Position numbers and translations under genes: made by a program. A stretch of DNA of 63,273 nt, filler included, from Folioceros fuciformis (taxonomy: Eukaryota): assembly GCA_049999805.1 (NCBI GenBank). It is 7 parts of 7 records of this genome, joined end to end, with 100 filler letters (N's around TTAATTAATTAA, not from the genome) between each part and the next. Parts side by side here need not be neighbours in the genome. Positions count along the whole stretch, not along the records: positions 53,525 to 58,738 come from JBNGIO010004184.1; 6 more parts are not named here. One strand, written 5' to 3'. Below the pieces are notes generated by a model. The model saw only the letters and a program-made list of their open reading frames with translations, searched no databases and had not been told where the DNA came from. How positions within the stretch are numbered: position 1 is the first letter of the stretch; the number at the start of each line of letters is the position of its first letter. Shown in pieces: positions 4,386 through 62,700 of this stretch.

Positions 4386-4485
4386 NNNNNNNNNNNNNNN
4401 NNNNNNNNNNNNNNNNNNNNNNNNNNNNNTTAATTAATTAANNNNNNNNNNNNNNNNNNNNNNNNNNNNNNNNNNNNNNNNNNNN
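4386..4485. other. Artificial contig-joining linker (N44 + TTAATTAATTAA + N44); identical blocks at 8602-8701, 31534-31633, 39164-39263, 53425-53524 and 58739-58838
   Basis: The same 12-mer, with stop codons in all six frames, is centred in a 100-nt N block six times. Plain 100-N gaps lie at 3182-3281, 27682-27781, 33127-33226, 56055-56154 and 61279-61378. Confidence 0.95.
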
Positions 4486-6562: not shown

Positions 6563-8335
6563 TTAGATCAAACCCCCAAGCATCAAGAGCAGCAAAATGA
6601 GCTTGGTGGACGGAATGATGGTGGTCTGGGAGGACGGGAACAGGGCACCCAGCGGTGGAGCAGGCGCCTGCAAATCGGCCAGCAGGCCGCAATAGAGCAA
6701 GTTTGCAGGTGGAACTTTCTCATTGCCATTTACCGCCTCGGCGCCAGCCTGCCTATCCACCACGCGCATATAGAGCTCCTGGCCCAGATACTGATTTTGC
6801 AGGAGCTGAGAGCGGATGTTCCACATTCCCGCATTGTTCAGCTCCACCTGCACCGCAGTCCAGGCGCCGGGCAGGACCTGCACTGTGGAGCGTACAACTG
6901 CATTCCACTTGTTGTACTGGCTGCGCTTATCCGGGCTCCACACTCCCTGGTCGAAGCCCAACACGAAGAAGGCGTATCCGTCCAGGTGCCATGTGTTGAC
7001 ATTGCTGTCGTTGTTCTGGAACACAATCTCGATGTTAGACTCATATTCGCCTTCGATGACGGGCACCCCCAGTACTCCAGTCCCGGAGTCATCTGGCAAG
7101 GACGGAAAGCTCCCGGGTATGAACACGTCCGGCACCTGCTTGTAGTCTGCCAGCTTCAGAGGCGTCGATGGCGCTTGGTAGGACACACCGTTCACAGCGT
7201 ACCGCTGCCGGCCTGATATCACAGGGTCAGATGCTACCAGCAGGTATGTTGCGTTGATTGGGATGCTGCCATACTTGTAAGATCCCTGCGGGTTAGGCCT
7301 GGCCGCGCCTGCGCTGAGGTTCCACGTCACAGACCGGAGCTGCTCCATAGCAAACCAGAACTGGCTGATGGAGTTGGAAAACTCATATTCGTAGGGGAAC
7401 ACGCCGACTGGTGAGACAGTCGATCCTGTATAATGCATCACAGCCACGCCAGAAACATTCCATTCCGACTGATTCACAAATCGAGGCGTCGCCACAATGT
7501 AGAAATCTGCGGGGATAGTGTAGTTAGCCGTGACCAACACAGAATAGGACTGGCCTACGTGTATGTCCAGCGAGGTGTAATTCTGCTGCGAAGTGTAGGA
7601 ACCCTCTGTCTCCACCAGCTGCATCAGATGGCCCTGTATCATGAAATTGAGACAGGTTGCAATACCGACGTTGGATATCCGAAGCCTGTAGGTTGCGCCC
7701 GAAGTCACCTCGACGGAGGTGAAATCTCCCCCGCTCCCGTAAGGCCCCTTCCCATTGATGTGAACGCCGTCGGGATACCCGAGAACCGAGCCACTGTCCA
7801 ATTGCGCCTTAAGAGCTTTGTGACTAGTTGTATACCAGTCCCCGATCAAAATGACGTAGTCTCCTGCAGGTGCGTGGAAGGGCAACGCAATTGTTGCGCG
7901 GTTGTTGATGATGATACCTCCAAACCCTCCCGCTGCTTTCTGAAAATAAGTTGTCGGGAAGTAGTAGAAGCTCCCGATCTGGTCCTTCAACTGGAACTGG
8001 TACGTCCAGTTCGTCTGAGGTTGGATAGGACAATTGGTGCCGAGGACGCCATCCTGCCACGAGTTCTTGCGCATCTGGATGCCGTCGAATGTCACCAGAA
8101 ACGGCTCGTCCAACGTGTTGATGATGTTGATCCGCAAGTTGTGGTTGGTCGTGGTGTTGATCACCGGGCCGGGGAACTCCCCGTTGATAGCAATTACCTG
8201 CTGCGGTACGCCAAGCACCGTGGCTGTGATGTAGGAAACATTCCAAAGAAAAACGTCTGTAGGATCGCCTCCACTAACGGGTTCCAGCAATGTGCACAAC
8301 AACACCAGGAGAGCCGCAACCACTTCGTTTCCCAT
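6563..8335 (-). CDS. SKU5: SKU5/SKS-family multicopper-oxidase-like protein, 590 aa, signal peptide and probable GPI-anchor tail; single exon
   Basis: Motifs GVPQQVIAINGEFPGP, RKNSWQDGVLGTNCPI, KDQIGSFYYFP, LVETEGSYT, WNLSAGAARPNPQGSY, WHLDGYAFFV and GMWNIRS. N- and C-termini are hydrophobic. Confidence 0.93.
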   Translation of the reverse strand: MGNEVVAALLVLLCTLLEPVSGGDPTDVFLWNVSYITATVLGVPQQVIAINGEFPGPVINTTTNHNLRINIINTLDEPFLVTFDGIQMRKNSWQDGVLGTNCPIQPQTNWTYQFQLKDQIGSFYYFPTTYFQKAAGGFGGIIINNRATIALPFHAPAGDYVILIGDWYTTSHKALKAQLDSGSVLGYPDGVHINGKGPYGSGGDFTSVEVTSGATYRLRISNVGIATCLNFMIQGHLMQLVETEGSYTSQQNYTSLDIHVGQSYSVLVTANYTIPADFYIVATPRFVNQSEWNVSGVAVMHYTGSTVSPVGVFPYEYEFSNSISQFWFAMEQLRSVTWNLSAGAARPNPQGSYKYGSIPINATYLLVASDPVISGRQRYAVNGVSYQAPSTPLKLADYKQVPDVFIPGSFPSLPDDSGTGVLGVPVIEGEYESNIEIVFQNNDSNVNTWHLDGYAFFVLGFDQGVWSPDKRSQYNKWNAVVRSTVQVLPGAWTAVQVELNNAGMWNIRSQLLQNQYLGQELYMRVVDRQAGAEAVNGNEKVPPANLLYCGLLADLQAPAPPLGALFPSSQTTIIPSTKLILLLLMLGGLI

Positions 8336-8701
8336 CCCTTTCCGCTCTTAATTGAACCACAGAAAGGTCAACAAATTGCAGCTGTTGCCACAAGAACTTG
8401 CACACGCTCTAGGAAAACGCTTTTCCTACTTCTGGAACAAGGGAAATCCAGGACCTGGTGTCTTAGTCTGGACAAAGAGCCTCTTGACTCCTTCTTTAGC
8501 TTCCATTCTCCGTCTAGATCCTCAGAACCAAGCCCCAGCAACAGAACACGCACCCTGCAGCACTGCCGAGCTCAATGAAGCAGAGTAGGCACATTCGCGA
8601 CNNNNNNNNNNNNNNNNNNNNNNNNNNNNNNNNNNNNNNNNNNNNTTAATTAATTAANNNNNNNNNNNNNNNNNNNNNNNNNNNNNNNNNNNNNNNNNNN
8701 N

Positions 8702-9899: not shown

Positions 9900-12075
9900 T
9901 TCCCGCCTCTGTAGAAGGTTCTCCTTCCTCCTGTTGTCCTGCTCCACCGTTCGTAGGTTGACTCCCTCCTGCCTCCGTAGGTGGTTCGACAACAAGTTCC
10001 TTTTGTGGCGGTAGGTCTGCAAGGTCAGTCAGCGTCTCAGCGGCTTCTCTCGCTCATTCCTCTTCCTCCTGCTCAGGTACCTCCTCCCACTCAAAATCTT
10101 CCTTATCCATGTCATTGTCTTCCGTCCATTCTGTCACGGGAGGTATGGACTTCTTCAGCTCAGCTCGGTCATCGTCATGAGGCTCAATAGCCTTCCTCTT
10201 CGTAATCTTCAGCAGCTCCTAGTTGGTCTTCAAAATCTTGTTGTATAGGTGCACCCTTTCCTCCTCCAAAGTCAACTTGAGTTCTTCCAAATCCAGAGGG
10301 TCACCTTGCAAACGCTGCTAGTAGGCATCTCTCTCCAAGGTCAGTCTTCCTACCTTCAACTATAGGGCCACATTCTCTTCCTGTAGGAGACAAAGTTGGG
10401 TAAGCAAACCAAACCATAGTCCACTCGGAACCTACGCTTCCTAACAACCAACATCTTGTGAATCTGGGAGGCATGTTGAAGTTCTAAGTTCTCCTTCTGC
10501 TACTCCACCTCCTCAAATCTCAAGTGATCCTTCTTTCTCTCCTGCTGTAGGCAAGACTGTTCTTTAGTCAGTCGTTGAATCTCTACGTCTTTGTTCTTTA
10601 CTTCATTCTTGCGCCCTTCCAGCAGAGCCTCCAAATTTCGTGGGTGTGACACCCTCTCTTGCAGTGTAGCCTCATCTTGCTGTTTCTTCTCTTCCAAAGT
10701 CACAACTTGCTGACGTGTTTCCAATAATTCAGACTGAGTAGTGTCCAGTGAGTGCTTTAGCTCAACGACTTGGGCCCGCAACTAAATCTGTAGGTCTCCT
10801 TGCTATTGGTTAAGCTACATGAGATCTTCTCGTTCCACCTCCTAATCATTGATGAATACGCGCAGATAGTTGGCTTCCTCCTTCCCTTCTTTCTTCAGAT
10901 CTTCTAATGTTCTCCTTGCTACTTGCTAATCAATCTTACTAATCTTCACACAGTACTCCAGCATCTCACATAAGGGATCCCTCTTCTCTCGCTCTTGGTC
11001 TTCCTCCTCTTGTGGTGGGCACTCTTCAGGGGTCGGGTTCTCTTGAGTAGGTGGCTCCATCTCTATTGGACTCTCTTTTGGAGGGGCTGGTGACATGAGA
11101 AATCTCGATGATTCGCTCCCTTCCTAACACCAGGGACTTTCCCCTCCTTCTGCTTGCGAGAGGCACTGCTCCTCCGTCTTCTTCCCTACCCGCGCGTAGG
11201 TTGAGTATGGTACTGCCATGGTAGGTTGGCTTCCCTACCCCTCCTGACCTATAGGCTCCACATCTCTCAAGGTAATGACTGCAAAGGGTCCCTTTGCCTC
11301 TGCATATTCATCATCTGTCAGCAGCCCTTCAGTAGACCAGACATGTACTAGATAAGGGGTCAAATAGCAGGGTTGAGCTCCTCCTTCATCTGTAGTATTG
11401 GGTCGTAACAGCTTCTCCCTGTGGTAGGTGTAGGCTTCATACATGATAAGTCCCCAATCTGGTTTCTCCCCTTGAGTCACTCTCCTCAGAAAATGCAGAA
11501 AACTATTGATGAAATAAGAAGTATGCTGGTAATTGACAAGACCCAAGACAATTTTAGTAAACAATTTCCACTTGTGATCCTTGATCTGGTCTGTCCTCCA
11601 GCCATTCTTGGTCTTGGCCTGCAATCCTCCAACCAACATGTCCATTGCTCCATCTGGAGGGAAGGTGTTGAAGACCTTTTACCATTTGTAGTTTTGTCTG
11701 CCAAGCTGATGCCATCACTCTTTGACTCGGGCCTTCCATAGACCTAATGAATACTCTTCACTATCCAGCACCGAGGGTCTGTCCTAGCATTCCACTCAGG
11801 TAGGGCTGCGAATGGCTCATCCGTTTACTGCAAGTTCCTGTAATACTCCGCCACCAAACCTTGATGAGAAAAAGCCCAATGGCGCCCATAAATCCACTGC
11901 AACTGGATGTTGCCCTCTCTTGCCCAAGGTTGACACTCCAGGCGGTCGCGAGGGTTCAACTACCCTCCAAAACAAGTGAAAGTTTGGACAGGGATTGCGG
12001 AGCTACTTCCTTCTCCTCCCCTCCAATTTCTGTCATTTTGCCCAACATGAGTTGTCTTGGTCATCCTGGCCATCT
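9900..12075 (-). mobile_element. Degenerate transposon-associated ORF (globular region followed by a long coiled coil), broken by many stops
   Basis: ORF remnants at 11235-11645 (GEKPDWGLIMY) and 10500-10781 (coiled coil) with many TAG/TAA interruptions. It resembles the accessory ORFs of large plant LTR elements; the family is not identified. Confidence 0.4.
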
Positions 12076-31041: not shown

Positions 31042-31633
31042 GGTCAGGCTCTCTCCTCCCGGCTCCGGCGCGGAAGATGCATTCTCTCTGCTCTCTCTTG
31101 CGAGGTGCGGGGCCAATGCATGCGATTCCGAGGGGCCGAAGCGCGCGCGGCAAGCAGCAGGCGGCAGGGCCAGGGGACAGGGGACAGGGTCGCGAGACGT
31201 GGGAGTCGCGAGTCGGGAAGGTTTCAAGGCAGGGAGAGCAAGGTTGCGGTGGGGTGCGATTGCAGTCGCGATTCGCGGACTCGCGACTCTGAGACGTGGT
31301 GAGGGATTGCCAGATCGCCAGGGAAGGAGAGGTGTGTGTGAAGTGTGTGAAGAGAGAACACAAGAGACAGGCTCGGTCACGACTCGGCCAAGCCCCCCCA
31401 AGCCCCAGCCGCGGCCCGTCGTTTTGGCGGCTTCCCTGTGTTTGGAGCAGCAGTGGAGAGAGTCTGGCACTGGCACCGGGCACTGAGCACTGCCACACCA
31501 CCTTATTCTTCTCTCCTCTGTCCTGTCCCACTGNNNNNNNNNNNNNNNNNNNNNNNNNNNNNNNNNNNNNNNNNNNNTTAATTAATTAANNNNNNNNNNN
31601 NNNNNNNNNNNNNNNNNNNNNNNNNNNNNNNNN

Positions 31634-39163: not shown

Positions 39164-40443
39164 NNNNNNNNNNNNNNNNNNNNNNNNNNNNNNNNNNNNN
39201 NNNNNNNTTAATTAATTAANNNNNNNNNNNNNNNNNNNNNNNNNNNNNNNNNNNNNNNNNNNNGGGAGTGTAACGGAGCGTTTAGCGCGTGCCGTGGCCC
39301 CGAAGTTAGATGACACACGATGGTAGACACAGCACTTACAGCGCGACCCAGTGACTCACGGGACAGAGTACTCACAGGCGGTCGGCTTCGCTGCCCGTTC
39401 ACATGGGTTGGAGGTCGGGCTTTTTGTCTTTTTATCTTCTCTTTAGAGTCATGGGATGGCAAAGTAGAAACCCGTACCGGATTCACGTTCACTAGCGGAC
39501 GTCCTGCCCTGGATGCTACCTTCGTGTATATGGTCATTCTCAGCGCCTGCGTACATTCTCTCACCTGGTAAGTAGCTTCTTCTCTTACGCATGGTCGACC
39601 TTTTCATGCTATAATAACCGTGCGCGTGCTAGTACTGTACAGGGTCCACTTAGCATGAATCATGGTGGCCGAGAGAAGGGTGGGTTGGACTCTGGTGTGT
39701 CGTGGAGTTACTCACATGCTTGGCTTCGCTTTTAGAGCGTTGTGATCTGTCTTTTCCCCAGTTGAGGAGATCCGAAGGTACAAACTTCGTGGTTACAGCT
39801 GTGAGCAAGGCGTCGGGATGAAGTGATAACTCGGGGTCTAAGACTAGTCTAGCGGTGATGAAGCAAATCGCTTTACGGTGGCTCACAATGGCGAACGGTG
39901 AATGGTCCATTGCGTCGGTGAATGGAATTATTGTGCAACGCAGCAGCAACAGAAACTGCGCAGCTGAGAGTTTGTGAGGTCATCTCTAGCACTAGAAGTC
40001 TCTTACGAATGGACAGGAAGAAGACGGAAGGAAAGTCCCATGGAGCAAGAGGAAGGAAAGTCCCATGGTGCAAGAGGAAGGAGCAGGAGGATGGGACAGC
40101 ACAAGCCCGAATGCTGGTTTCGTGCGGAGGAGCAAGTAGGAACGAAGCCCCGTGCCTCTTGGAGGAATGAATTGCGGTCTCGTCTCAAGCTGGTTCGACG
40201 TCTGGCGGGCGTCATCGCACTGTGCCAGCCCCTTCCCTGGATGACATTTGGAGCCCAGGAAGGTAACATGGGCTCGTTCCCAGAAGTGAGACCGTGCCCA
40301 ATATCCAGTGATGAGCGCCGAGTCGGTGTTTTCCGTGTCCCCTGTGACGCATCACAATGCTTCCCGAAGGAGACGAGGAGAAACACATACGACTTCGAGT
40401 CAACATTTTTCCGCTTCCCTCAAAGTGCCGCAGAGGGAAGGAA

Positions 40444-50289: not shown

Positions 50290-53200
50290 TTAGGGCTACA
50301 CAACTTCCAGGTTCAATATGTCGTCTGCTCGTCTGTATTGACATACACAAGATCAATAGCTCCAGATAAAATCCTTTCACGAAGAAAATGATAATGTATT
50401 TCAATGTGTTTTGTCCTGGCATGAAACACTGGGTTTCGCGCCAACTGTATGCTGCTAAGATTGTCACAGTAGATAACAACCTTGTCGTTGACCTGCAATC
50501 CAAAATCTCCGAGTAACTTACAAATCCAAGTCACTTCACACGCTGCCATTGCTGCGCCTCTGTATTCAGCTTCTGTACTAGACAAAGCCACTGTAGGCTG
50601 CTTCTTGCTACTCCATGTAATTGCTGCACTCCCAAGTGAAAAAATGAATCCACTTGCAGATCTACGATCAGTAACACTGCCTGCCCAATCTGCATGTGTA
50701 TCCACACAGGTTTATTTCTAAATCTGCAACATAAAAGAGAGCATGATCCATAGTTGCCTTCACATAGCGCAACGTTCGCCTTACTGCATCCAAATGTGGC
50801 TTTCTTGGCGCCTGCATAAACTGACTTTGCAATCCCACTGTATAGTTCAAATCTGGTCGGGATAGAGTGAGATATATCAAGCTACCCACTATCTTCCTGT
50901 ACATTGTTGGATCTTCAAGTGCTTTACCATCATGAGCACTGAGCTTTAGATTTTGATCCAAAGGAATCGAGATTGGCTTGCACTCAACCATACCATACTT
51001 AGTTAGTACATCCGACGCATACTTCCGCTGTGACAGCCAAATGCCTGTGTTGGTTCGTATAATTTCAATGCCCAAAAAGAACCTCAGTTCACCTAGGTCC
51101 GCCATCTTGAACTCTTGTTGTAGAAGTTCCTTGATCTGCTCCACTTGATCCAACTGATTACCTCCAATGATTAGATCATCCACATAAATGGTCACAAAGA
51201 CCAGTCGTTTTGTACTTTTGCACACATACAACGAATGATCCGCATCTGCCATGTTGAATCCGATGTGAATCAGATGCTGACCAAGACGCTCATGCCAAGC
51301 CCTCGGGGCTTGCTTCAGTCCGTACAACGTTCTTTTCAGCTTGCACACATGATTTGGATGATCCAAATCCTCATAACCTGGTGGCTGGTCCATGTATACT
51401 TCTTCCAGCAATTCTCCATGTAAAAACGCATTCTTCACATCCATATGATGTAGGACCCAACCTTTCGATGCCGCTAGTGCGATCACGGTTCGAATTGTTG
51501 CCATTTTGGCAACTGGACTGAACGTCTCCTCAAAATCTATTCCATATGTCTGGGCATATCCCTTGGCCACAAGCCTTGCCTTGTACCTGTTGATACTACC
51601 ATCTGCGTTGTGTTTGACCTTGTACACCCATTTGCAACCTATTGGTTTCTTGCCTTCAGGTAGTTGTACTAGGTCCCATGTTGCATTCTGATTTAACGCA
51701 TTCATTTCTTCATCCATAGCATGTTCCCACTTTGTGTCTCCAATAGCTTCTTCAAGGCTTCTTGGTTCCACATCCTGTACAACCTTTGCCATATAGGCAT
51801 GGTGCCTAGCTACATAGCTATCATAGGTCAACCGCTGTATTGGAACCTTCTGCCTTCCAGATCTCCGTGGGATTGAACCACTTCCAGGGGCTGATTGAAC
51901 TTCTTTTGCACCAGGTGTTTCGATTTTCGGTACACCGAATTCCTCATCCAAGCTCTGCTCAGAGTCGCTTGAATCATCCGCACCTGCACTTAGGTCTGGT
52001 ATCTTTGAATCTTGGACTTTTTCCTTCCCTTTGCGAGACACAGCTGTGGAGTTCGTAGGACTCACACGACCTCGCAACCTGGAACTCCATGGATTCTGAA
52101 CATTTGTCGAGTTTGATGACGCTTGCGGTCCACTCAACACTTGTGATTGTTGACCTGCATTGCTTGTTACCTCAGTTTCAAGCACATCAGCTACACTACT
52201 TCCTTGTACTTCAAAGTACCAGCTACCCATTTCATCAAAGACTACGTCTCTGCTTACTCTCATAGTCCGTGTACTGGGATTGTAGCACCTGTATCCTTTC
52301 TGTGTAACAGAATACCCAATGAAGACACACTTTTCTGCTTTTGGATCAAGCTTAGTCCGCAACTCATCCGGAATATGGACATAAGCAATGCAACCAAATA
52401 CCTTTAAGTGTGACAAGTCAGGTTTCTTCCCTGTGAACTTCTCCTCCGGTGTTACACTGTGCACCGCTGCTGTGGGAGTTCTGTTCATGATGTACACTGC
52501 TGTGCTTACAGCTTCAGCCCAATAGTAGTGAGGCATCTTCTTCTCTGTCATCAAGGCTCTCGCCACTTCTGCTATGTGCCTGTTCTTGCGCTCTGCAACT
52601 CCATTTTGTTGTGGCGTATAACGACATGAGTACTGCCGTTGAATGCCTTGTTCTGATAAGAATTTGCTGAACTCTCTGGAGAAGTACTCTCCCCCTCCAT
52701 CAGATCTTAGGCATTTGATGTGCCTACCTGTCTGCTTCTCAACCATCGCCTTGAAAGTATGAAAATGAGTGATCACTTCACTTTTTTCTTTCATGAAATA
52801 GACCCACACCTTCCTTGTGTGGTCGTCAATGAAGGTCATATAGTACTTGCAACCTCCGATTGATGCAGTCTGTGTAGGACCTCATACATCTGAATGCACA
52901 ACATCCAACACATATCTGCTGACATGTTTGTCATGGGGGAACGCATTCCTAGGCTGTTTCCCAAGTTGACATGCTTCACATATACCTTGCAGTCCATTTT
53001 CTGTAAGCTTGGGTATGCCTGTGACAACCTTCTGATGCTGCATGGACTTCAACTTCTGCACATTTACATGTCCAATGCGTTTGTGCCACATCTCTAGGTC
53101 TGTCACTACCCTTGTACCCTTCGCAAACATGGCTGACTTCAGCTTAGGAACCTCCACGTTCAAGGTGAACATCCGTCCAACCTTCTGTCCTTGAGCAATC

Positions 53201-53424: not shown

Positions 53425-54122
53425 NNNNNNNNNNNNNNNNNNNNNNNNNNNNNNNNNNNNNNNNNNNNTTAATTAATTAANNNNNNNNNNNNNNNNNNNN
53501 NNNNNNNNNNNNNNNNNNNNNNNNTGGCCAATGGAGGTTTGGAGGTAGTGATGGGAGAGACTAAGGAAAAAAATATATAAAAATTGTAGTTATGCTTTAA
53601 GTCTGGAACAGAGGAAGAAACCATGATTGGTATGAAATGCTTGATTGTTAAATCTGGAAATTTTGATGTCATTTTGGGGACAGAGGCTTTGTTCATGCAT
53701 GGAGGAGGAGTGGATTTATGGACAGACGAGTTTTACTATGGTCTAGGGTAGCGACAAGGTGAAGAAATAAGAGTAGCAACAATTCCACTTAAGTTGCAGT
53801 TGCCGGAGGATATGCAAGATGCGTGTGTAGTGAATATGATGACTTCGTGGAATGAACAGGATGAAGAAGATGAAGATGATAGAATGTGGGTTGTGTGTCA
53901 TATGAATAAGTTATGTTTAAAAGAATATACTCATACCAGAGTGGAAGAGGATGCAATGAGAGAAAGTGTTGGTAGAGCATTAGCTAAAATTTTTAGACAG
54001 CTTGAGAAATGACAGATTGAGTTTCAGCTATATGATAAAATTCGACCTTGTACAAAGGAAGTAGTTTGTAAACTTGAATCTATGTGTAATAAACTTATAA
54101 TGTTGAGTCGTCTGAGTATGAG

Positions 54123-55080
54123 TTGGTTGTGGTTGAGCTGTTTGCTGGAATTGCATCTGGTTTGGAGGTTGTGTTGGCTGCTGGGTATGTGGTCAGGCGT
54201 TACATTTACTGTGATCCAGATGAAGTTTGTCAGGCAATTGCAAAGGCAAGAGTGTTCAAATTATGTAAGAAGTATCCTGAACAATTAAAGGTTGAAGTTG
54301 TGAAGCAAGTGTTTTCTGCTTGGCCGCAGGATGTTAGGCTTATTGGATTGATACAATTTCGATTGGAAGAAGAAATTGATCTAATCATAGCCGGTTGGGA
54401 ATGTCAAGGGCATTCAATGGCAGGCAAAGGAAAGGGCCTGTTAGATTATAGGTTAGTGTTATTTTATGAGCTAATTAGGATTTTGGATTTGGTGCAAAAG
54501 CATCAAAAGAAAGAATGTGGGTTTTTGATTGAAAATGTAACCCTAAACCCTAGATTCACAAATGGACAGAAGAATGGAATTGAAACGAGATTTTGAGGAG
54601 ATCAAGTATTATTTAGGTGAGACTATAAAGTTGGATGCAGTGCAGTTTGGATCCAGTGCTCATAGGCATCGTTGTTTTTGGAATAACATGATGCTTAAGC
54701 ATTTGTGGCAAATGCATGCGAGTCAGTGGTGTAGAGATGATGATTTGATAGTTGATCAGATATCAAATGAGGGGCGAGTGAGTAAGCAGGTGACTCCAGA
54801 TGACAGACAACCCTTTTATTGTGTAAGTAAAAAGGGTGAGCTTAGGAGGGCATTGCCGACATTTGTTAGTTTTGAAGGCACCAATGCATTTAAGGGGAAT
54901 GGACCTGAGATAATATTTGATACAAAGAGGAATGTGTGGGATGTACCATCTCCCATAGAGAGAGAGAGAGAGTGATGGGTTTTGATACAAATACTACTAA
55001 GGTGGAGGGCATAACATTTGAGTAGAGGAATAAAAAACTCGAACAAGCTATGGATTTAAATACAATTAGGTGGCTTATGA
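54123..55080 (+). pseudogene. C5 cytosine DNA methyltransferase domain embedded in the Gypsy pol (2 frameshifts, 1 stop)
   Basis: Motifs in canonical order: I ELFAGIAS, II YCDPD, III QDV, IV IIAGWECQGHSMAG, V LFYELIRIL, VI FLIENV, VIII DAVQFGSSAHRHRCFW, IX IERERVMGF, X R..LEQAMD. Confidence 0.88.
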
Positions 55081-58000
55081 TGTCTATAAAAGTTTATTAA
55101 GAGTGGAAGAAAATGTGGAAAGCTATTTTGAGCTCAAGGTTGGAAGAACGTAATTTGGGTAAAGTAAAAAGGGGCGAAGGTCTAGATGTTGGGGGGAGAT
55201 TATAAGGATGAGAGAGCATGATGATGTTTTAGGTGATGAGGGTAAACAAAACAAGTAGATGAGATATGGGACACAAATGGCAGAGGTGGAGAGGGGAGTT
55301 GGAAGTGTTGTTAGCTCAGGTTGGGAGGTCAAGGTTTGTGAGAAACAAGAACATATGGATTTTCAATGGGACATTTCTGATGAGATGACTTTGGAAGATA
55401 GGGAGGATTTTGTAAAGATTTTGGGAAGTAGCAGGCAGGTATTTGCTTTTTCCAATAAAACAATTGGGCAGGAACAAGACGTTTAAGTTTAAGATTCGGC
55501 TTAAAACTTCTGAACCGGTTTTTAGAAGGCCATATCGTTTGAGTAAACTAGAGAATGAGATTGTGGATAAGAAGTGTCAAGAGTTGCTAGAAGCTAGATT
55601 GATAAGGTCTTCGGAGTCAGAGTATGTAGCAGCTACAGTACTTCCGCCAAAGAAAGACATGCATGACAATTGGATAGAAAAGAGAATGTGTGGTGATTAT
55701 ATGCCGCTTAATGAAGTGACGCTTATGGACAAATACCCAATATTGACTGCAAAGGAAATTTTTGATGCAATTGGTGAGTGTAAGATATTTTCAACATCGG
55801 ATTTGACGGGTGGTTTTAATTAAATTGAAATTGAAGAGGAAAATAAGAAGAAGACAGCTTTTTTGGGTAATAGATGTTTGTGGGAATAGGTGGTTATTAC
55901 GTTTGGATTGAAGAATGCTCCTAGTGCTTTTTAGAGGGCGATGGACCAAGCATTGAGAGGTTTGTTGTTTACTAGGTGTTATTAAATAAATGGTGTGATA
56001 ATTTTCAATAGCAATGTGGAAGAACATAAGGAGCATGTTAGGCAAGTGTTGGATNNNNNNNNNNNNNNNNNNNNNNNNNNNNNNNNNNNNNNNNNNNNNN
56101 NNNNNNNNNNNNNNNNNNNNNNNNNNNNNNNNNNNNNNNNNNNNNNNNNNNNNNGTACCTAGTGGGACGGCACTATCTGATGTCAAGGTTGAGGCGATAG
56201 CAAAAATGATGCCACCTTAAGATGTGGGAACTTTGCGCTCCTTTTTAGAGTTGGTAAATTATTATCGCAATTTTGTGGCAAACCACAGTATGGTGGTGAA
56301 ACCTATGACAATGTTGTTAAAGAAAGATGCAGTGTGGGTTTGGGGAGAAGATCATCAGAGAGCATTTAAGGAGATAAAAGACATTTTGATGAGCAAGCCT
56401 TTATTGACAAGACCCAATTTTGACAGAAAGTTTAAGTTATATACAGGTTGGAGCAAACTTGGTTTGCGAGCAGTGCCAGCGCAGGATGATGAGAGTGGAG
56501 TGGAGCATGTGGTAGCGTATGCAAGCAGGAGTAACAATTCTGCAAAGAGTAATTATTCCTCATATCATGGAGAATGTTTGGCAACGGTATGGGCAGTATC
56601 GCATTTTAGGCCTTATCTGTATGGTACTGAATTTGAGCTGGTGATGGATCATCAACCTTTGAAGTGGTTGATGAAGATTGAAAAGTTGACAAGAAAGTTA
56701 GCAAGGTGGGCACTTATCTTGTAGGAGTATAATTTTTCTATTGAGCATAGGGCGGGAGTGAAACACGCAAATGCAGATGTGTTGTCAAGGAATCCATTAG
56801 GAAGTTTAGAAGATTCAACAGTTTCCAGGCAGGATTTTGATAAGAATGTCAGAGTTGACTGTAATTTGGTGGTGTCCAGATGGGCACCGAGTGCATACCT
56901 GGTGAATTTGGTGGAGTTGGGAGTTCCTTCGGTGTCAGTAGATGTGTGGGAAGACAGGAATACATTGGAGAGGGTGATGACCGGTGGGATTTAGGAGACG
57001 TTGTGAGGGAGAATGATAGAGTGACAAAACGAAGTAGGAGATATGTATGGGTTGACAATAAGTTATTGTTTAAGGATAACATGAAGGTGGTACCAAGACC
57101 GGAAGAAAGAATGAATTTGGGAAAAAAGATTTATGTAGAGTTAGGACATTTTGGTACAAAAAGAACAATGAGTTTACTCATGAACAGTTATTATTGGAAA
57201 GGAATGATGGAGGTAGTTGAGAAAGGTGGTGTCTACTTGTGAGGTTTGTGATAGGGTGAAAGCAAGTTTTTCAAGCAAAACTTCTCAGCTTCATCTGTTC
57301 CCTATTAGGGGGATGTTTTATAGGTGGAGTTTGGATTTGGCTGGAGAGTTACCAGTTACGCGTAGAGGTTTTAAGTATGTGTTGGTGATGATAGAACATT
57401 ACTTTAAGTGGATAGTTTTGGTGCCTTTGAGAGAGAAGAAGTCACATAACATTAAGGAAGCATTTCTTAATCATGTGTTGAGTGTTTTTGGGGCTTGTGC
57501 AGAAGTTTTGACAGATTAGGGTATTGAGTTTATGGGAGATTTTGATGAATTTTTAAATGAGTATCTTATTGATCATAGGGTAACTTCAAGGAATCACGCG
57601 AAGGCTGATGGTTCGGCAGAAAGAATGGTACAGACTTGTAAGAGTGCTTTGAGGAAGTATTGTTTGGTAATGGACAAGAGTGAGTGGGATAGGATGTTGC
57701 CATTTCTTGCAATGAGTTATAGGATGAGTAGGCAAGCATCGTTGGGAAAGTTTTCGCTATACATGTTGTTGTTTGGGTGTAGACCACAGTTGTCTGGGAT
57801 GTTAGAAGACAAGGTGAATAATATAGTGGATCTGGATGACCCTAATAAATGGTTGAAGATAGTTACACATAGAGCGGAATTGTTTAGGAGAATTATGCCT
57901 ATGGCAATGGATAACTTGTTGATAGCTCAACAGAGAGATGAGTTGAGGCACAGAAAAACAAGGAGTGGGCATTTCAGGCCTAAGGTGAAGAAGTTTGAAG

Positions 58001-58221
58001 TTGGAGAATATGTATATTTGGAGAGGAAGACAATGACAACAATTGATACGAGTGCGGGTAGGATAATATTAAGGGTGAGAAGTGTGAAGTTGAATGGAAT
58101 TTTGGAGTTGTAAAGGAAGGATGGTACAACTTGTTTGGAACACATGAAAAATTGTGCGCCATGTCATTTACCTCATTTGAATCCAATAATTGATGTGCAA
58201 GCTTTTGTGCCGAGGAAGGGA

Positions 58222-58383
58222 TTTGCTTGTACAGGTTGTGGAGATTCTGGAAGTGATCATTGCATGTTGTTGTGCGATAGGTGTAATGATGGGTGGCACA
58301 CCTTTTGTTTAGAGCCTCCACTAGAAGCAGTGGCTGATGGGCAACGGTTTTGTCCAATGTGTGTAGCAGTTGATACATTGTGA
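58222..58383 (+). pseudogene. PHD finger (Cys4-His-Cys3) at the integrase C-terminus
   Basis: CTGC...MLLCDRCNDGWHTFCLEPPLEAVADGQRFCPMC, in the same frame as the integrase ORF across one TAA (58111-58113). Confidence 0.9.
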
Positions 58384-58493
58384 GGAGCAGTGTAGTCAGC
58401 ATGTATGAATTTTGATGTTAAAGTTTGTTAATCTATCTTACCAATAAAAGATGATCAGCAGATTAAGGGGGGGAAGTGATGGTGCCACATCGA

Positions 58494-58738
58494 GGGAGGA
58501 GGAGTAGAGGAAAGCTACTCCTTTTGTCAATCTCGTGTGTAGTAAACCACCAAAGAGTGGTAGGATGACTAGTAGCCTTGGTGTGCACGATGGGGAGGAA
58601 GCCATCAAGGGGAGGCATCCATGAATTATAAGTGTGATCACTATACTCACATTAAGGGAGGAGGAGTAGAGGAAAGCTATTCCTTTCGTCGATCTCGTGT
58701 GTAGTAAACCACCAAAGAGTGGTAGGATGACTAGTAGC
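58494..58738. repeat. Direct repeat (~160-bp period) inside the Gypsy 3' LTR
   Basis: GGGAGGAGGAGTAGAGGAAAGCTA...GGTAGGATGACTAGTAGC occurs at ~58494 and ~58656. Confidence 0.8.
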
Positions 58739-59019
58739 NNNNNNNNNNNNNNNNNNNNNNNNNNNNNNNNNNNNNNNNNNNNTTAATTAATTAANNNNNN
58801 NNNNNNNNNNNNNNNNNNNNNNNNNNNNNNNNNNNNNNAAGAACCTCATGCACATCTTCGATGCATCAAGAAGGTTAGGTCCATTCATTTTAAAAAGACA
58901 ATATGGAAAATCCATCCATCCGTAATGAGGGAGATAAATCTTGATTAGACGCTAGGGCTACCCCTGACCCTAATGGCTACCAATAGTAGCTAAAATATCT
59001 GTGTCCAAGCTAGCTTGGA

Positions 59020-59544: not shown

Positions 59545-62500
59545 GAATCACCTTGCGCTCCACAGATTAGCAAACAAAATGATGTTGGATCTCGATATGT
59601 TTGGTGCGGGCATGGAAACGGGGATTCCCAACAAGCATAATTGTTGATCTGTTGTCGCAGTAGATGATAGTTGGAGCTGGTTGAGGACAATTCAGGCTGG
59701 AGAGAAAAGTACACTCCCACTCAGCTTCCTTAGCTGAATCCGTGAGTGCCTTATACTCCGCTTCCGTGGAGGAAATAGCAATGGAGGCTTGCTTCTTCAA
59801 GCTCCAATTGACAGCAGCATTCGAAAGCAAAAAACAATAAGCTGAGATGCTTCTGCGCTGGTCAGGATCTGTTGCCCAGTCAGTATCAGCATACGCTTGA
59901 ATGGTATTGGAGTTCTCAGCTTCGTTGAATCATAACCCATAGGTGGATGTTCCCTTTAAACAGCGAAGGATACACTTCACAGCCATCCAATGGTCCTGGC
60001 CTGGGTTCTCAAGATATTGTGATACAAAGCTCACAGAATGCTGAATATCAGGCCTTGTCCAACATGCTATGTAATTCAGGCAGCCTACTGCATGACAATA
60101 AGGGATCTAACTCATGGCTGCCTTTTCTTCTTCATCTTGTGGGGATTTCCCAGCAGACAACTTCCGACCCACTATGCTTGGTGTTCTAACAGGCTTGGCA
60201 TCTACTAGGTTGAAGCGGCGAAGTGTCTCATGAACATACTTGGTCTTATGAAGAATCAAGGTATGATTTTGCCTATCGCACAGAAGCCGAACACCAAGGA
60301 CAAATGCAAGCTAACCTATGTCTTTCATGTCGTAGCGCTTGTGCAGCATGCCCTTGACCCAGTCTAAAAGATCTCTCTCGATTGTTGGAGGCTAAAATGA
60401 CGTCGTCAACATAAAGGGCTAGGATCACAATGTGTTCTCCTTTGGTATACATATATATGTTGGCGTCTGCTAGATTCTAAACGAAGCCAATAGATTTGAG
60501 GTATTTATCAATGCATTTGTACCATTCCCTTGTGCTCTGCTTAAGCCTGTAGAGAGTCTTATGGAGCTTGCAAACCCAATCTGGGTGTTCAAGATCCAGA
60601 AAACCCTTTGTCTGATGCATATAAATGTCCTCTTCTAACTCTCCGTATAGAAATGCAGTCGAGGCATCCATTTGTTTGAGATCCCAGTCACGAGCAGCAG
60701 CAAGTGCCAGCATGATTCTTATGGATTGTGTCTTCACAATAGGGCTGAATGTTTCGTTGAAGTCGACACCTACAACGTGGGAGAAACCTCGTGCAACAAG
60801 ACGTGACTTGTGACGTGCTATCTCTCCTTGTGCATTTAACTTGTGCTTGAACACCCACTTGCAGCTCACAGTTTTCCTTCCTGCAGGCAAGGGGCAGAGT
60901 TCCAGGTTTCATTTTTCATCAAAGAGTCATATTCGTCCTGGATTGATGGAATCCAGTGTTTCTTATTCTTCCCTGTGATGGCCTCTCTGTATGTGCAAGG
61001 TTCTACCGGAAAAGAAGTGTTGGATGAGAAGACCTCGCAGAGACGTGCAGACCGTGGTCGCCTAAAGTCTTCTGGCTCATAGGGTTTAGTCTACCAGTTT
61101 TCTCGAGAAGGACGAGAACAAGTAGGGTATCTTCTTTCTTCCTCTGCAGCTGGTTGTGAGAGTAATGGGACAGGTACTACAACAGCAGGTTTTGCAATAG
61201 GCATGTCTCCATCATCAGCAGGCTATGAATCAGGAGTGTCTGAATCAGATGCTACAGCTAAATCGGCTGGCTCTAAAANNNNNNNNNNNNNNNNNNNNNN
61301 NNNNNNNNNNNNNNNNNNNNNNNNNNNNNNNNNNNNNNNNNNNNNNNNNNNNNNNNNNNNNNNNNNNNNNNNNNNNNNTGACTGCTATGGGCTATGTAGT
61401 GGATGGAAAACGGACTGCTGTGATGAAGGTGGCAATTGTTCAGGGCTCTGTAAAGTCTGGTGTGGCTGCGGCTGCTGTGATATCTGTGATCCACCTCCTG
61501 AAGGGCTAGCAACTGAAACAAGTATATAAACGACAGCTGCTGGCAATTCAAACACGGCATCTTGTGGAAAAACCGAAGGGGAATCATCGAAAACAGAGGC
61601 GTTGAGAACAAAACCAGGAATTGTAGGTGAATCAGGAGTTCCAGAATTTTGATCAGCTGTAGAGTGAGAGTTGGTGATCTCCTTGAAGGTAACACTCCTG
61701 GCAAATAGAGAGGTGTGTGAAACCGGGTCATAAAGGTTGAATGCTTTGGTTTCTTCACCATAGCAGACAAAAATAAGGGGTCGTGCCCGAGCTTCAAGCT
61801 TTTTACGTTGTTCCTCATGGATGTAAGCATATGCAGGAGAGCCGAAGACACGTAAATGAAGCAAGCTAGGTTTCCTTTGCTAGAGAGCTTCGAAAGGGGT
61901 TCGATCCGGTACAGTAGAAGTAAGGAGGCAATTCAAGATGTAAGTAGCCATAACTACAGCCTTAGCCCAATATGATTTGTGAAGTCCAGACCAGGCTACC
62001 ATACTCCGAGTCATATTTAATAAGGTCTGATTACGGTGCTCTACAACGCCATTCTGATGTTGAATGTAGGGTATGCTTAGTTGCCTTCTGATGCCTTGTG
62101 AGGAAAGGTACTCGCCACGAGCTAACACAAGAGAAAATTGTGGAGATCTTCCAAGGATGATCCCCAAACCAACAGTGGTAGCCAACGGTATCCAACTGCC
62201 CTGCGCTAATCATGCTTTTTGTCAACTTTGGAACATGCCTAACATCCTTCATTATAAATGAAGATCCGTTGTCAAACCTTAGCTGCACATCACCAATGCC
62301 TGCAATCTTGCATGCGTAGTTATTTCCAAGCCGAACACATCCTTTCCTAGTAGCATCATAGGTGCTAAACCACTCCCTATGCGGAGTAACAAGGAAAGAT
62401 GCTCTCGAGTCAATTATCCAATTAGAGAGTAAGTGACTATCCACGGCTGTCAATTGTGCAGAATCTAAGGAAGAAGAGATAAGAACATCTCCATCATCAA

Positions 62501-62700
62501 CAGAATTCACCTCGTCAGACTTGATACTCAGACTTGCCTTGTTGTCGTTCTACTTCTTCTCCTTTCCTTTGTCCTTCTTGAAGTTCTCACAGTCCCTTCT
62601 GATGTGACTCTTTTTGTGACAATGATAACACTCAACATTGTTACAACTACGAGATTTGCTATAGGAAAGGCTTTGCTCCTTTTGCTTCCCATCTCAAACG
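59545..62700 (-). mobile_element. Decayed Ty1/Copia: gag zinc knuckle and protease (62130-62700) joined by a deletion to integrase-RT-RNase H (59545-62125)
   Basis: CYHCHKKSHIRRDC, WIIDS, QNGVVE, HLRVFG, CKWVFK, YVDD, SSTEAEY and RTKHIEIQHHFV. Confidence 0.88.

Follow-up and report, generated by a model that had tools for sequence, protein, structure and literature searches.

A PHD finger behind the integrase in a DNMT3-bearing Ty3/Gypsy lineage, traced from a decayed copy in Folioceros fuciformis

A decayed element with a methyltransferase domain and a PHD finger

The window, by which we mean the whole stretch of 63,273 nucleotides analysed here, comes from Folioceros fuciformis (assembly GCA_049999805.1). 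One of its parts carries the remnant of a Ty3/Gypsy retrotransposon whose polyprotein holds a DNMT3-like cytosine methyltransferase domain (DNMT) and, behind the integrase, a PHD finger. The element lies alone on its own small, unplaced scaffold of 5.2 kb (53525–58738, JBNGIO010004184.1), which has an internal gap of 100 N at 56055–56154. Mapping with intact relatives by tblastn and with Pfam recovered the Ty3/Gypsy pol order of protease (PR), reverse transcriptase (RT), RNase H (RH) and integrase (INT). The DNMT sits between PR and RT, giving PR-DNMT-RT-RNaseH-INT-PHD overall; we refer to the order DNMT-RT-RH-INT-PHD as type A. Related proteins carry P numbers and metagenome loci L numbers. 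The features of the scaffold are as follows.

53533–53793, + strand: remnant of the aspartic protease region (tblastn of P0046 residues 292–384; three in-frame stops)
54123–55079, + strand: DNMT3-like C5 cytosine methyltransferase domain (Pfam PF00145, E 2.2e-8; tblastn)
54123–54539, 54565–54969 and 54960–55079, + strand: frame segments of the DNMT (two frameshifts and one stop, TAG 55023)
55449–56054, + strand: N-terminal part of the reverse transcriptase (tblastn, 39–48% identity to P0002, P0040 and P0046; four in-frame stops)
56055–56154: 100-N scaffolding gap within the reverse transcriptase
56155–56985, + strand: end of the reverse transcriptase and RNase H (Pfam RT_RNaseH, E 1.4e-31; tblastn; two in-frame stops)
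57003–57224, + strand: integrase N-terminal zinc-binding (HHCC) domain (Integrase_H2C2, 29.9 bits against a cut-off of 25.5; its frame differs from both neighbours)
57217–58110, + strand: integrase catalytic core and C-terminal domain (52–55% identity to intact relatives; in-frame TAG 57517)
58111–58113, + strand: premature stop TAA between integrase and PHD, specific to this copy
58114–58227, + strand: linker with the conserved motif NCAPCHLP (alignment with relatives)
58228–58362, + strand: PHD finger, Cys4-His-Cys3 (PF00628, 31 bits; matches to KDM5, BAZ2 and ATXR5 in the PDB)
58381–58383, + strand: natural polyprotein stop TGA (from the translation; type-A relatives stop 1–8 residues past the finger)
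58384–58738, + strand: 3′ non-coding end of 355 nt, with a 91-nt direct repeat that runs into the scaffold end

The copy is dead and 5′-truncated. Across its domain segments there are 12 premature stops, each of them TAA or TAG, four frameshifts occur outside the N gap, and both gag and the 5′ terminal repeat are absent, cut off at the scaffold start. Neither the PHD nor the DNMT module can work here, and no function is expected at this locus. The decay is also visible in the Pfam integrase model rve, which reached 23.9 bits on the window integrase, under its cut-off of 32.6; seven intact relatives scored 29.6–51.9 bits, of which L077 (29.6) likewise stayed under the cut-off. Integrase and finger do not form one open frame in this copy because of the TAA at 58111, another in-frame stop within the integrase core (TAG 57517), and two frameshifts, at about 57003 and about 57222, on either side of the integrase zinc-binding segment.

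The finger is a family-wide trait of the integrase

The peptide encoded at 58114–58383 matched the whole 47-position PHD profile PF00628 over residues 39–83 (E 2.6e-7; 31 bits, cut-off 24). Its zinc ligands, read from the translation of nucleotides 58228–58362, are C39, C42, C54, C57, H62, C65, C80 and C83, and their spacing, C-x2-C-x11-C-x2-C-x4-H-x2-C-x14-C-x2-C, is canonical. From 57217 on, the finger shares its frame (frame 1) with the integrase core. Chromoviruses such as MAGGY are Ty3/Gypsy elements with a chromodomain at the integrase C-terminus that reads H3K9me; a Pfam scan of 57520–58383 found neither a chromodomain nor any other family behind the integrase besides PHD. An earlier note on this DNA, made from the sequence alone, had described a Cys4-His-Cys3 finger in the integrase frame, at the chromodomain's place and with the TAA at 58111 in between, and this description was correct, though it passed over the TAG at 57517 and the two frameshifts.

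The INT-PHD stretch, with its stops read as X, was used to search for longer proteins and gave 74 hits among 2278 candidates; PF00628 is listed for 55 of them, mostly at 40–55% identity over 97–100% of the query. When metagenome contigs were scanned, 484 of 600 candidate stretches proved to be relatives, and the best 80 were kept. The whole query is covered in 63 of these 80 loci. Seven of the 63 are free of stops (L006, L020, L049, L058, L061, L071 and L077), and all seven uninterrupted frames pass PF00628, at 27–46 bits; the other 56 are decayed, like the window copy. When 160 proteins from the INT-PHD and DNMT searches were scored with our own DNMT, INT and PHD profiles, 78 of the 105 integrase-bearing proteins had the finger. 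In an alignment with five relatives, the junction motif NCAPCHLP between integrase and finger is conserved.

L006 is an intact relative at 53% identity, where the highest identity found was 55%. Its first open reading frame (ORF1, 1359 residues) encodes Gag with CCHC knuckles, protease and DNMT, and is followed by an in-frame TAG; its second (ORF2, 1043 residues) encodes RT-RNaseH-INT-PHD and ends 8 residues past the finger.

The interruptions in the window are not shared. Both INT-PHD stops correspond to Gln in four of the five aligned relatives, and to Arg or Glu otherwise. Two DNA runs of the same organism, X1 and X2, yielded 777 and 686 placed contig pieces that are 80–99% alike to the window element. 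In place of the window's TAA at 58111, six X1 contigs have GAG, and all contigs covering 58114 read G, restoring the Gly of the relatives' 'LQG' motif. Some same-organism copies carry four extra bases (AACG) at 57002 and one base fewer at 57222, and are thus without the window's two integrase frameshifts. Since relatives and same-organism contigs differ from the window at these places, the stop at 58111 and the frameshifts at 57002 and 57222 are private to this copy or its sub-lineage. A further private defect lies in the finger itself, where an Arg replaces the Trp that 68 of 76 relatives have two residues before Cys7.

The PHD match lies well beyond chance, because the INT-PHD junction aligns to dozens of proteins and the finger profile matches solved PHD fingers (E down to 7e-23). 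Taken together, these alignments show that the finger is genuine, selected and present throughout the family as a module at the integrase C-terminus, where chromoviruses have their chromodomain; it belongs to the element, not to a neighbouring gene. The earlier note had considered that the stop at 58111 might be conserved across copies, or the finger missing from the family, and neither turned out to be so.

Two side observations concern the same junction. One cluster of integrase-PHD proteins in the Protein Atlas scored 0.93, which we treat as a lead only. Run X4, which carries the same species label and is only guessed to be RNA, gave two placed pieces. One of its contigs, of 1613 nt, matches the window only at 58137–58169 (the NCAPCH motif), and its flanks, read from the loose ends, are LQGSDGRTT ... 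HLPNLDPTIVTS, an uninterrupted INT-PHD junction of a P0002-like subfamily. This second subfamily may be present, and perhaps transcribed, in the organism; the X4 contig says nothing firm on expression.

The finger resembles readers of unmethylated H3K4

A profile built from eight fingers (A3) was searched against all PDB chains, and the best 60 matches were examined. Among them (E 7e-23 to about 1e-11) are PHD1 of Lid, KDM5A, KDM5B and KDM5D, together with CHD4, KMT2C/D, WSTF, ATXR5, BAZ2A/B, UHRF1/2, DPF2/3, PHF21A, KAT6A/B, AIRE, ORC1b and PHF12; the match to Lid/KDM5 PHD1 reaches 83 bits. The window finger alone and the eight-finger profile led to the same solved relatives. Among these 60 matches there was no finger of the ING, BPTF, TAF3 or PHF8 type, and no ADD domain of DNMT3 or ATRX. 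Most of these solved fingers recognise an H3 tail whose Lys4 or Arg2 is unmethylated.

Of the 78 family fingers, 76 preserve every ligand of the C4HC3 pattern, across lineages that share no more than 40–55% identity. PHD fingers that read H3K4me3 have an aromatic cage with a tryptophan placed two residues ahead of the zinc-binding His; in the family this position is Gly in 68, Ala in 6 and Pro in 2 of the 76 fingers, never aromatic, and Gly in the window, so that the tryptophan of that cage is missing from all 76. As judged from its residues and solved relatives, the finger most resembles a PHD class that includes the apparent H3K4me0 readers KDM5 PHD1, BAZ2, ATXR5 and UHRF1.

A DNMT3-like partner in two domain orders

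In 41 metagenome loci the sequence upstream of the integrase core extends for 4300 nt or more, and 38 of these 41 have a same-strand DNMT there; the exceptions are L013, L033 and L072. A DNMT profile (A2) drew 86 longer proteins, with named matches in Marchantia polymorpha (7), Calypogeia fissa, Closterium species, Haematococcus lacustris, Chlamydomonas eustigma and Cymbomonas tetramitiformis. Many of these escape the DNMT model of Pfam, and a listing that lacks PF00145 therefore means little. Scored with our profiles, the 160 proteins fall into five groups.

DNMT, INT and PHD: 40 proteins, all three in one open reading frame
INT and PHD, no DNMT: 38 proteins
DNMT, neither INT nor PHD: 55 proteins
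DNMT and INT, no PHD: 11 proteins
INT, neither DNMT nor PHD: 16 proteins

Intact copies with integrase and finger in a single frame, a point that the earlier note had proposed to check, exist both as the seven uninterrupted metagenome frames and as the 40 proteins that also carry the DNMT. In the 55 proteins with the DNMT alone, it mostly lies near the C-terminal end, as in ORF1 of L006.

Searched against the PDB, the DNMT profile matched DNMT3A, DNMT3B and DNMT3C best (E 2e-21 to 1e-15), with bacterial enzymes at about 1e-8, DRM2 at 7e-6 and DNMT2 also far behind. In the window, the motifs ELFAGIASG, GWECQ and ENV (motifs I, IV and VI) stand in canonical, non-rearranged order. The element's methyltransferase is, by its sequence relatives, DNMT3-like. 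Motif IV of the window, GWECQ at 54393–54407, has Glu-Cys-Gln in place of the usual Pro-Cys-Gln, as in some intact relatives (L071, P0046); L006 and L053 retain Pro-Cys-Gln.

Two domain orders occur. Type A is found in the window, L006, P0009, P0040 and P0046. Type B, RT-RH-DNMT-INT-PHD, is found in 36 proteins and in L071 and L077; it places the DNMT 150–285 residues before the integrase core and usually has an unannotated tail of 100–400 residues past the finger. Tails past the finger were located in L071 (10654–11835), L077 (4516–5679) and L049 (1604–2617), and in the proteins P0023, P0042, P0047 and P0053. No Pfam match was found in the tails of L071, L077, L049, L061 and L058. An aromatic-rich stretch that is conserved in these tails might form another reader-like domain.

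A maximum-likelihood tree from a quick search, built on 84 INT-PHD rows, midpoint-rooted only and omitting 22 integrase-bearing proteins that matched over fewer than 290 residues, separates all 41 type-A rows, including the window and a PHD-less Closterium group, from all 43 type-B rows (Shimodaira–Hasegawa-like approximate likelihood ratio test, SH-aLRT, 92). This split fits, without proving it, a single ancestor that would have had both modules and undergone one rearrangement.

An in-frame TAG separates the Gag-PR-DNMT frame from the RT-RH-INT-PHD frame in L006 (5083–5085, TAG CAG TTA) and L053 (1470–1472, TAG CAA CCC). Leaky stops in the context CAR-YYA are known from plant viruses, and the L006 stop fits this context, which suggests that Pol may be made by stop-codon readthrough there. 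A leaky stop conserved between DNMT and RT throughout was ruled out, as the P0002-like family reads through the junction with no stop.

Terminal repeats and C depletion

The only repeat pair visible before the scaffold end is the 91-nt direct repeat at 58486–58576 and 58648–58738, 95% alike and 162 apart. From 58504 on, contig depth is 3–4x higher in X1 and X2, which would fit a terminal repeat, but contig depth is not copy number. In the decayed relative L019 the terminal repeats are arranged as A ... B-A-B, with A at 1763–2051 and 11385–11673 and B at 11205–11385 and 11674–11854. These are not simple long terminal repeats (LTRs); they follow the DIRS-like A-coding-B-A-B layout reported for KnitGypsy-Dnmt3, a Klebsormidium Gypsy element with DIRS-like repeats and a DNMT3-like domain inside Pol (de Mendoza et al. 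2018, PMC5890265). No terminal repeats of at least 40 nt were found in L006, whose contig probably ends inside them.

The coding strand of the element (53525–58738, +) is extremely poor in C (A.31, C.11, G.29, T.29; GC skew +0.45). C makes up 4–8% of third codon positions, against 31–35% in host open reading frames of the window and 14–36% in intact relatives, and the CpG observed/expected ratio is 0.42. Since other copies in the organism share the bias, the depletion characterises the family and did not arise as a burst in the window copy. Candidate causes are plus-strand (RNA or cDNA) deamination over many replication cycles, or the element's own methyltransferase. Hypermutation of the window copy alone was rejected as the whole cause: Arg and Leu are mostly encoded by AGR and TTG, and against X1 C>T stands at 95 places and T>C at 93.

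A third run of the same sample, X3, has T at nearly every listed C of window positions 56155–58738, where X1 and X2 keep most C, and behaves like a bisulfite- or enzyme-converted library. We also rejected the idea that bisulfite-type reads had given rise to the C-poor scaffold as an assembly artefact; a larger share of the scaffold's words occurs in the ordinary runs X1 and X2 (0.34 and 0.29) than in X3 (0.06), and X1 and X2 keep the C's. Run X3 could yield a methylation map of the window element's family.

Neighbouring scaffolds

The window is a chain of unplaced scaffolds. Between one and the next stands a linker that reads N44-TTAATTAATTAA-N44, and the order of parts across these linkers is thus without biological meaning.

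4386–4485, 8602–8701, 31534–31633, 39164–39263, 53425–53524 and 58739–58838: scaffold linkers

Remnants of Ty1/Copia-type polyproteins, unrelated to the finding, lie on neighbouring scaffolds at 50668–52881 (− strand) and 59567–62549 (− strand), and include an open frame of 737 residues with integrase and RT motifs. Both are on separate scaffolds and therefore not physically linked to the element described here. Elsewhere in the window, at 6566–8347 (− strand), lies a host gene for an SKU5-like multicopper oxidase with at most 57% identity to named land-plant proteins; its best match is from a lycophyte, and seed plants reach 39–55%, which places the host among the land plants and probably outside the seed plants.

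Discussion

The window element is a dead, new member of the published Gypsy-DNMT3 kind. It shares with KnitGypsy-Dnmt3 the Gypsy domain set, a non-rearranged DNMT3-like methyltransferase in the polyprotein and a streptophyte host, and differs from it in its host, which is a land plant and not a charophyte alga, and in how extremely depleted of C the coding strand is in its family. P0052, a 'putative retrotransposon protein' of K. nitens, is a 42%-identical INT-PHD relative that may be part of the published KnitGypsy-Dnmt3. The term 'PHD' has no occurrence in the main text of PMC5890265 or in one of its supplements (nor have PF00628 and KnitGypsy in that supplement), a count that covers the text.

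We propose that this is a dead Ty3/Gypsy copy of the DNMT3-bearing kind in whose family the integrase PHD most likely tethers integration to nucleosomes that lack H3K4 methylation, a reading to which we give a probability of roughly 0.6. The finger would bind H3 tails, most likely those without K4 methylation, and so tether the integration complex to the nucleosome. Tethering to H3K4-unmethylated chromatin would steer insertions away from active promoters, as an analogue of the chromovirus chromodomain. The likeness to chromoviruses lies in a small chromatin-reader domain behind the integrase C-terminal domain, with tethering to a histone state as the likely logic; the difference is that the reader is a PHD zinc finger and that it probably recognises unmodified H3K4 in place of H3K9me. 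The DNMT3-like domain would be a second, separately placed chromatin module, probably acting on the element's own cDNA, as proposed in PMC5890265, or on the new insertion. The parts of this proposal differ in strength: we are highly confident of the identity of the element and of the finger as a family trait, regard tethering to histone tails as roughly an even call, and hold unmethylated H3K4 as the state read more tentatively still, at somewhat under even odds.

Several observations weigh against this proposal. First-loop acidic residues are part of the H3K4me0 reading mode, and in the family they vary, 21 of 76 fingers having none, which tempers the assignment to that mode. A Closterium subgroup nested among the relatives has no PHD, which shows that some lineages can do without the finger. 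The window copy itself, with its 12 stops, four frameshifts and an Arg at the conserved Trp, supports no claim for its own locus. Finally, the isolated methyltransferase domain of KnitGypsy-Dnmt3 produced no methylation in yeast, a result that its authors call inconclusive (PMC5890265).

The earlier note had gone further and envisaged a compact reader-writer system in one polyprotein, with the PHD reading the histone state and directing the element's own DNMT to the insertion site. Animal DNMT3 offers the precedent, as its ADD domain, which reads unmethylated H3K4, is paired with the methyltransferase. The logic is the same here, a finger of a class that presumably includes readers of unmethylated H3K4 together with a DNMT3-like writer, and the catalytic domain is closest to DNMT3A/B/C; however, the reader is a single canonical PHD and not an ADD, and its fusion partner is the integrase instead of the methyltransferase. 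Closest to the family's finger is KDM5 PHD1, and the finger's matches to KDM5 and BAZ fingers, with no DNMT3 or ATRX ADD among the best 60, speak against the parallel. Co-occurrence of DNMT and PHD stands, being stable across 38 of 41 loci and 40 single-frame proteins, and one can conceive of a DNMT-INT-PHD protein in type B, where the DNMT lies 150–285 residues ahead of the integrase core. Coupling itself fares less well. RT and RNase H separate the two domains in the window's order, an in-frame UAG splits Gag-PR-DNMT from RT-RH-INT-PHD in L006 and L053, 55 proteins have the DNMT only, mostly near their C-terminal end, and protease processing would probably part DNMT and PHD. Because type A puts writer and reader at opposite ends of the polyprotein, with the UAG in two relatives, physical coupling is plausible mainly for type B (RT-RH-DNMT-INT-PHD). 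As an account of the finger we judge it unlikely, if worth keeping in mind.

The finger might instead not read histones at all, and serve as a zinc module that aids integrase assembly or binds DNA, or as a dock for a host protein. The variable acidic residues of the first loop would suit this idea, and the type-B tail of 100–400 residues with no Pfam match suggests that the C-terminus may have other roles; the close likeness to histone-tail-binding fingers (83 bits to Lid/KDM5 PHD1) and a position equal to that of the chromodomain in chromoviruses argue the other way, and leave it a minority possibility.

A bolder scenario, which we consider doubtful, would have a Viridiplantae-wide lineage rebuild the animal DNMT3 logic at its integrase. 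Type-B DNMT-INT-PHD would integrate into promoter-free chromatin and methylate it de novo, a 'stealth' self-silencing, and the C depletion (4% third-position C) would be the footprint of methylation or deamination on one strand of the element's own replication intermediates.

A finger that recognises H3K4me3 and so directs insertions to active promoters is very unlikely. Many PHD fingers do read this mark, and one preprint reports cnidarian PYGO-like fusions of PHD and retrotransposon, PYGO recognising methylated H3K4 (10.1101/2021.11.30.470311); yet no such reader is among the best 60 solved matches, and where the cage tryptophan would stand, all 76 family fingers have Gly, Ala or Pro. A chance pattern or an exon of an adjoining host gene, which the stop between integrase and finger and the short unplaced scaffold with its N gap might have suggested, is already refuted by intact relatives with INT-PHD in one frame, the conserved junction motif NCAPCHLP and other copies in the same organism that lack the stop.

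As for precedents, four reports describe PHD fingers on retroelements as widespread (PMC6673714, PMC8557442, PMC9940879, 10.1101/2021.11.30.470311), a recurrent accessory domain found, in green algae and other hosts, on REM1, Gypsy-7a_cRei, CR1 long interspersed nuclear elements (LINEs) and Chlamys Penelope-like elements (PLEs) (PMC8557442, PMC6673714, PMC9940879). A figure legend gives the order in Gypsy-7a_cRei as RH, PHD, INT, unlike the C-terminal finger of the window element, and no DNMT is reported on REM1, Gypsy-7a_cRei, CR1 or Chlamys elements, again unlike the window element. EpiLTRs (bioRxiv 10.64898/2026.05.21.726589) are LTR retrotransposons that likewise join one or more DNA methyltransferases to a histone-reader domain; they differ in having an adenine methyltransferase, a DNMT sister to DNMT4 and a chromodomain, where the present family has a DNMT3-like domain and a PHD. 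By titles, abstract openings and passages, we found no paper describing the DNMT3-Gypsy-PHD combination or such elements in liverworts. The combination of DNMT and PHD, which the earlier note had singled out as the novelty, is nevertheless a weaker claim, given the published DNMT3-bearing Gypsy elements of streptophytes (PMC5890265) and the reported spread of PHDs on retrotransposons (PMC6673714, 10.1101/2021.11.30.470311).

What is added here is modest: the PHD as a near-constant partner of the DNMT, its likeness to the H3K4me0-reader class, and the survival of the pair through a rearrangement and from chlorophytes to liverworts. It has recently been recognised that mobile elements can interfere with host epigenetics by way of retrotransposons that carry a DNMT (PMC5890265). 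Within the Gypsy-DNMT3 lineage the methyltransferase almost always comes with a second chromatin module, the integrase PHD, a pair that spans liverworts, charophytes and chlorophytes. This pairing gives a concrete hypothesis of how such elements may be targeted, and natural intact copies exist, for example L006 and those of Marchantia and Klebsormidium.

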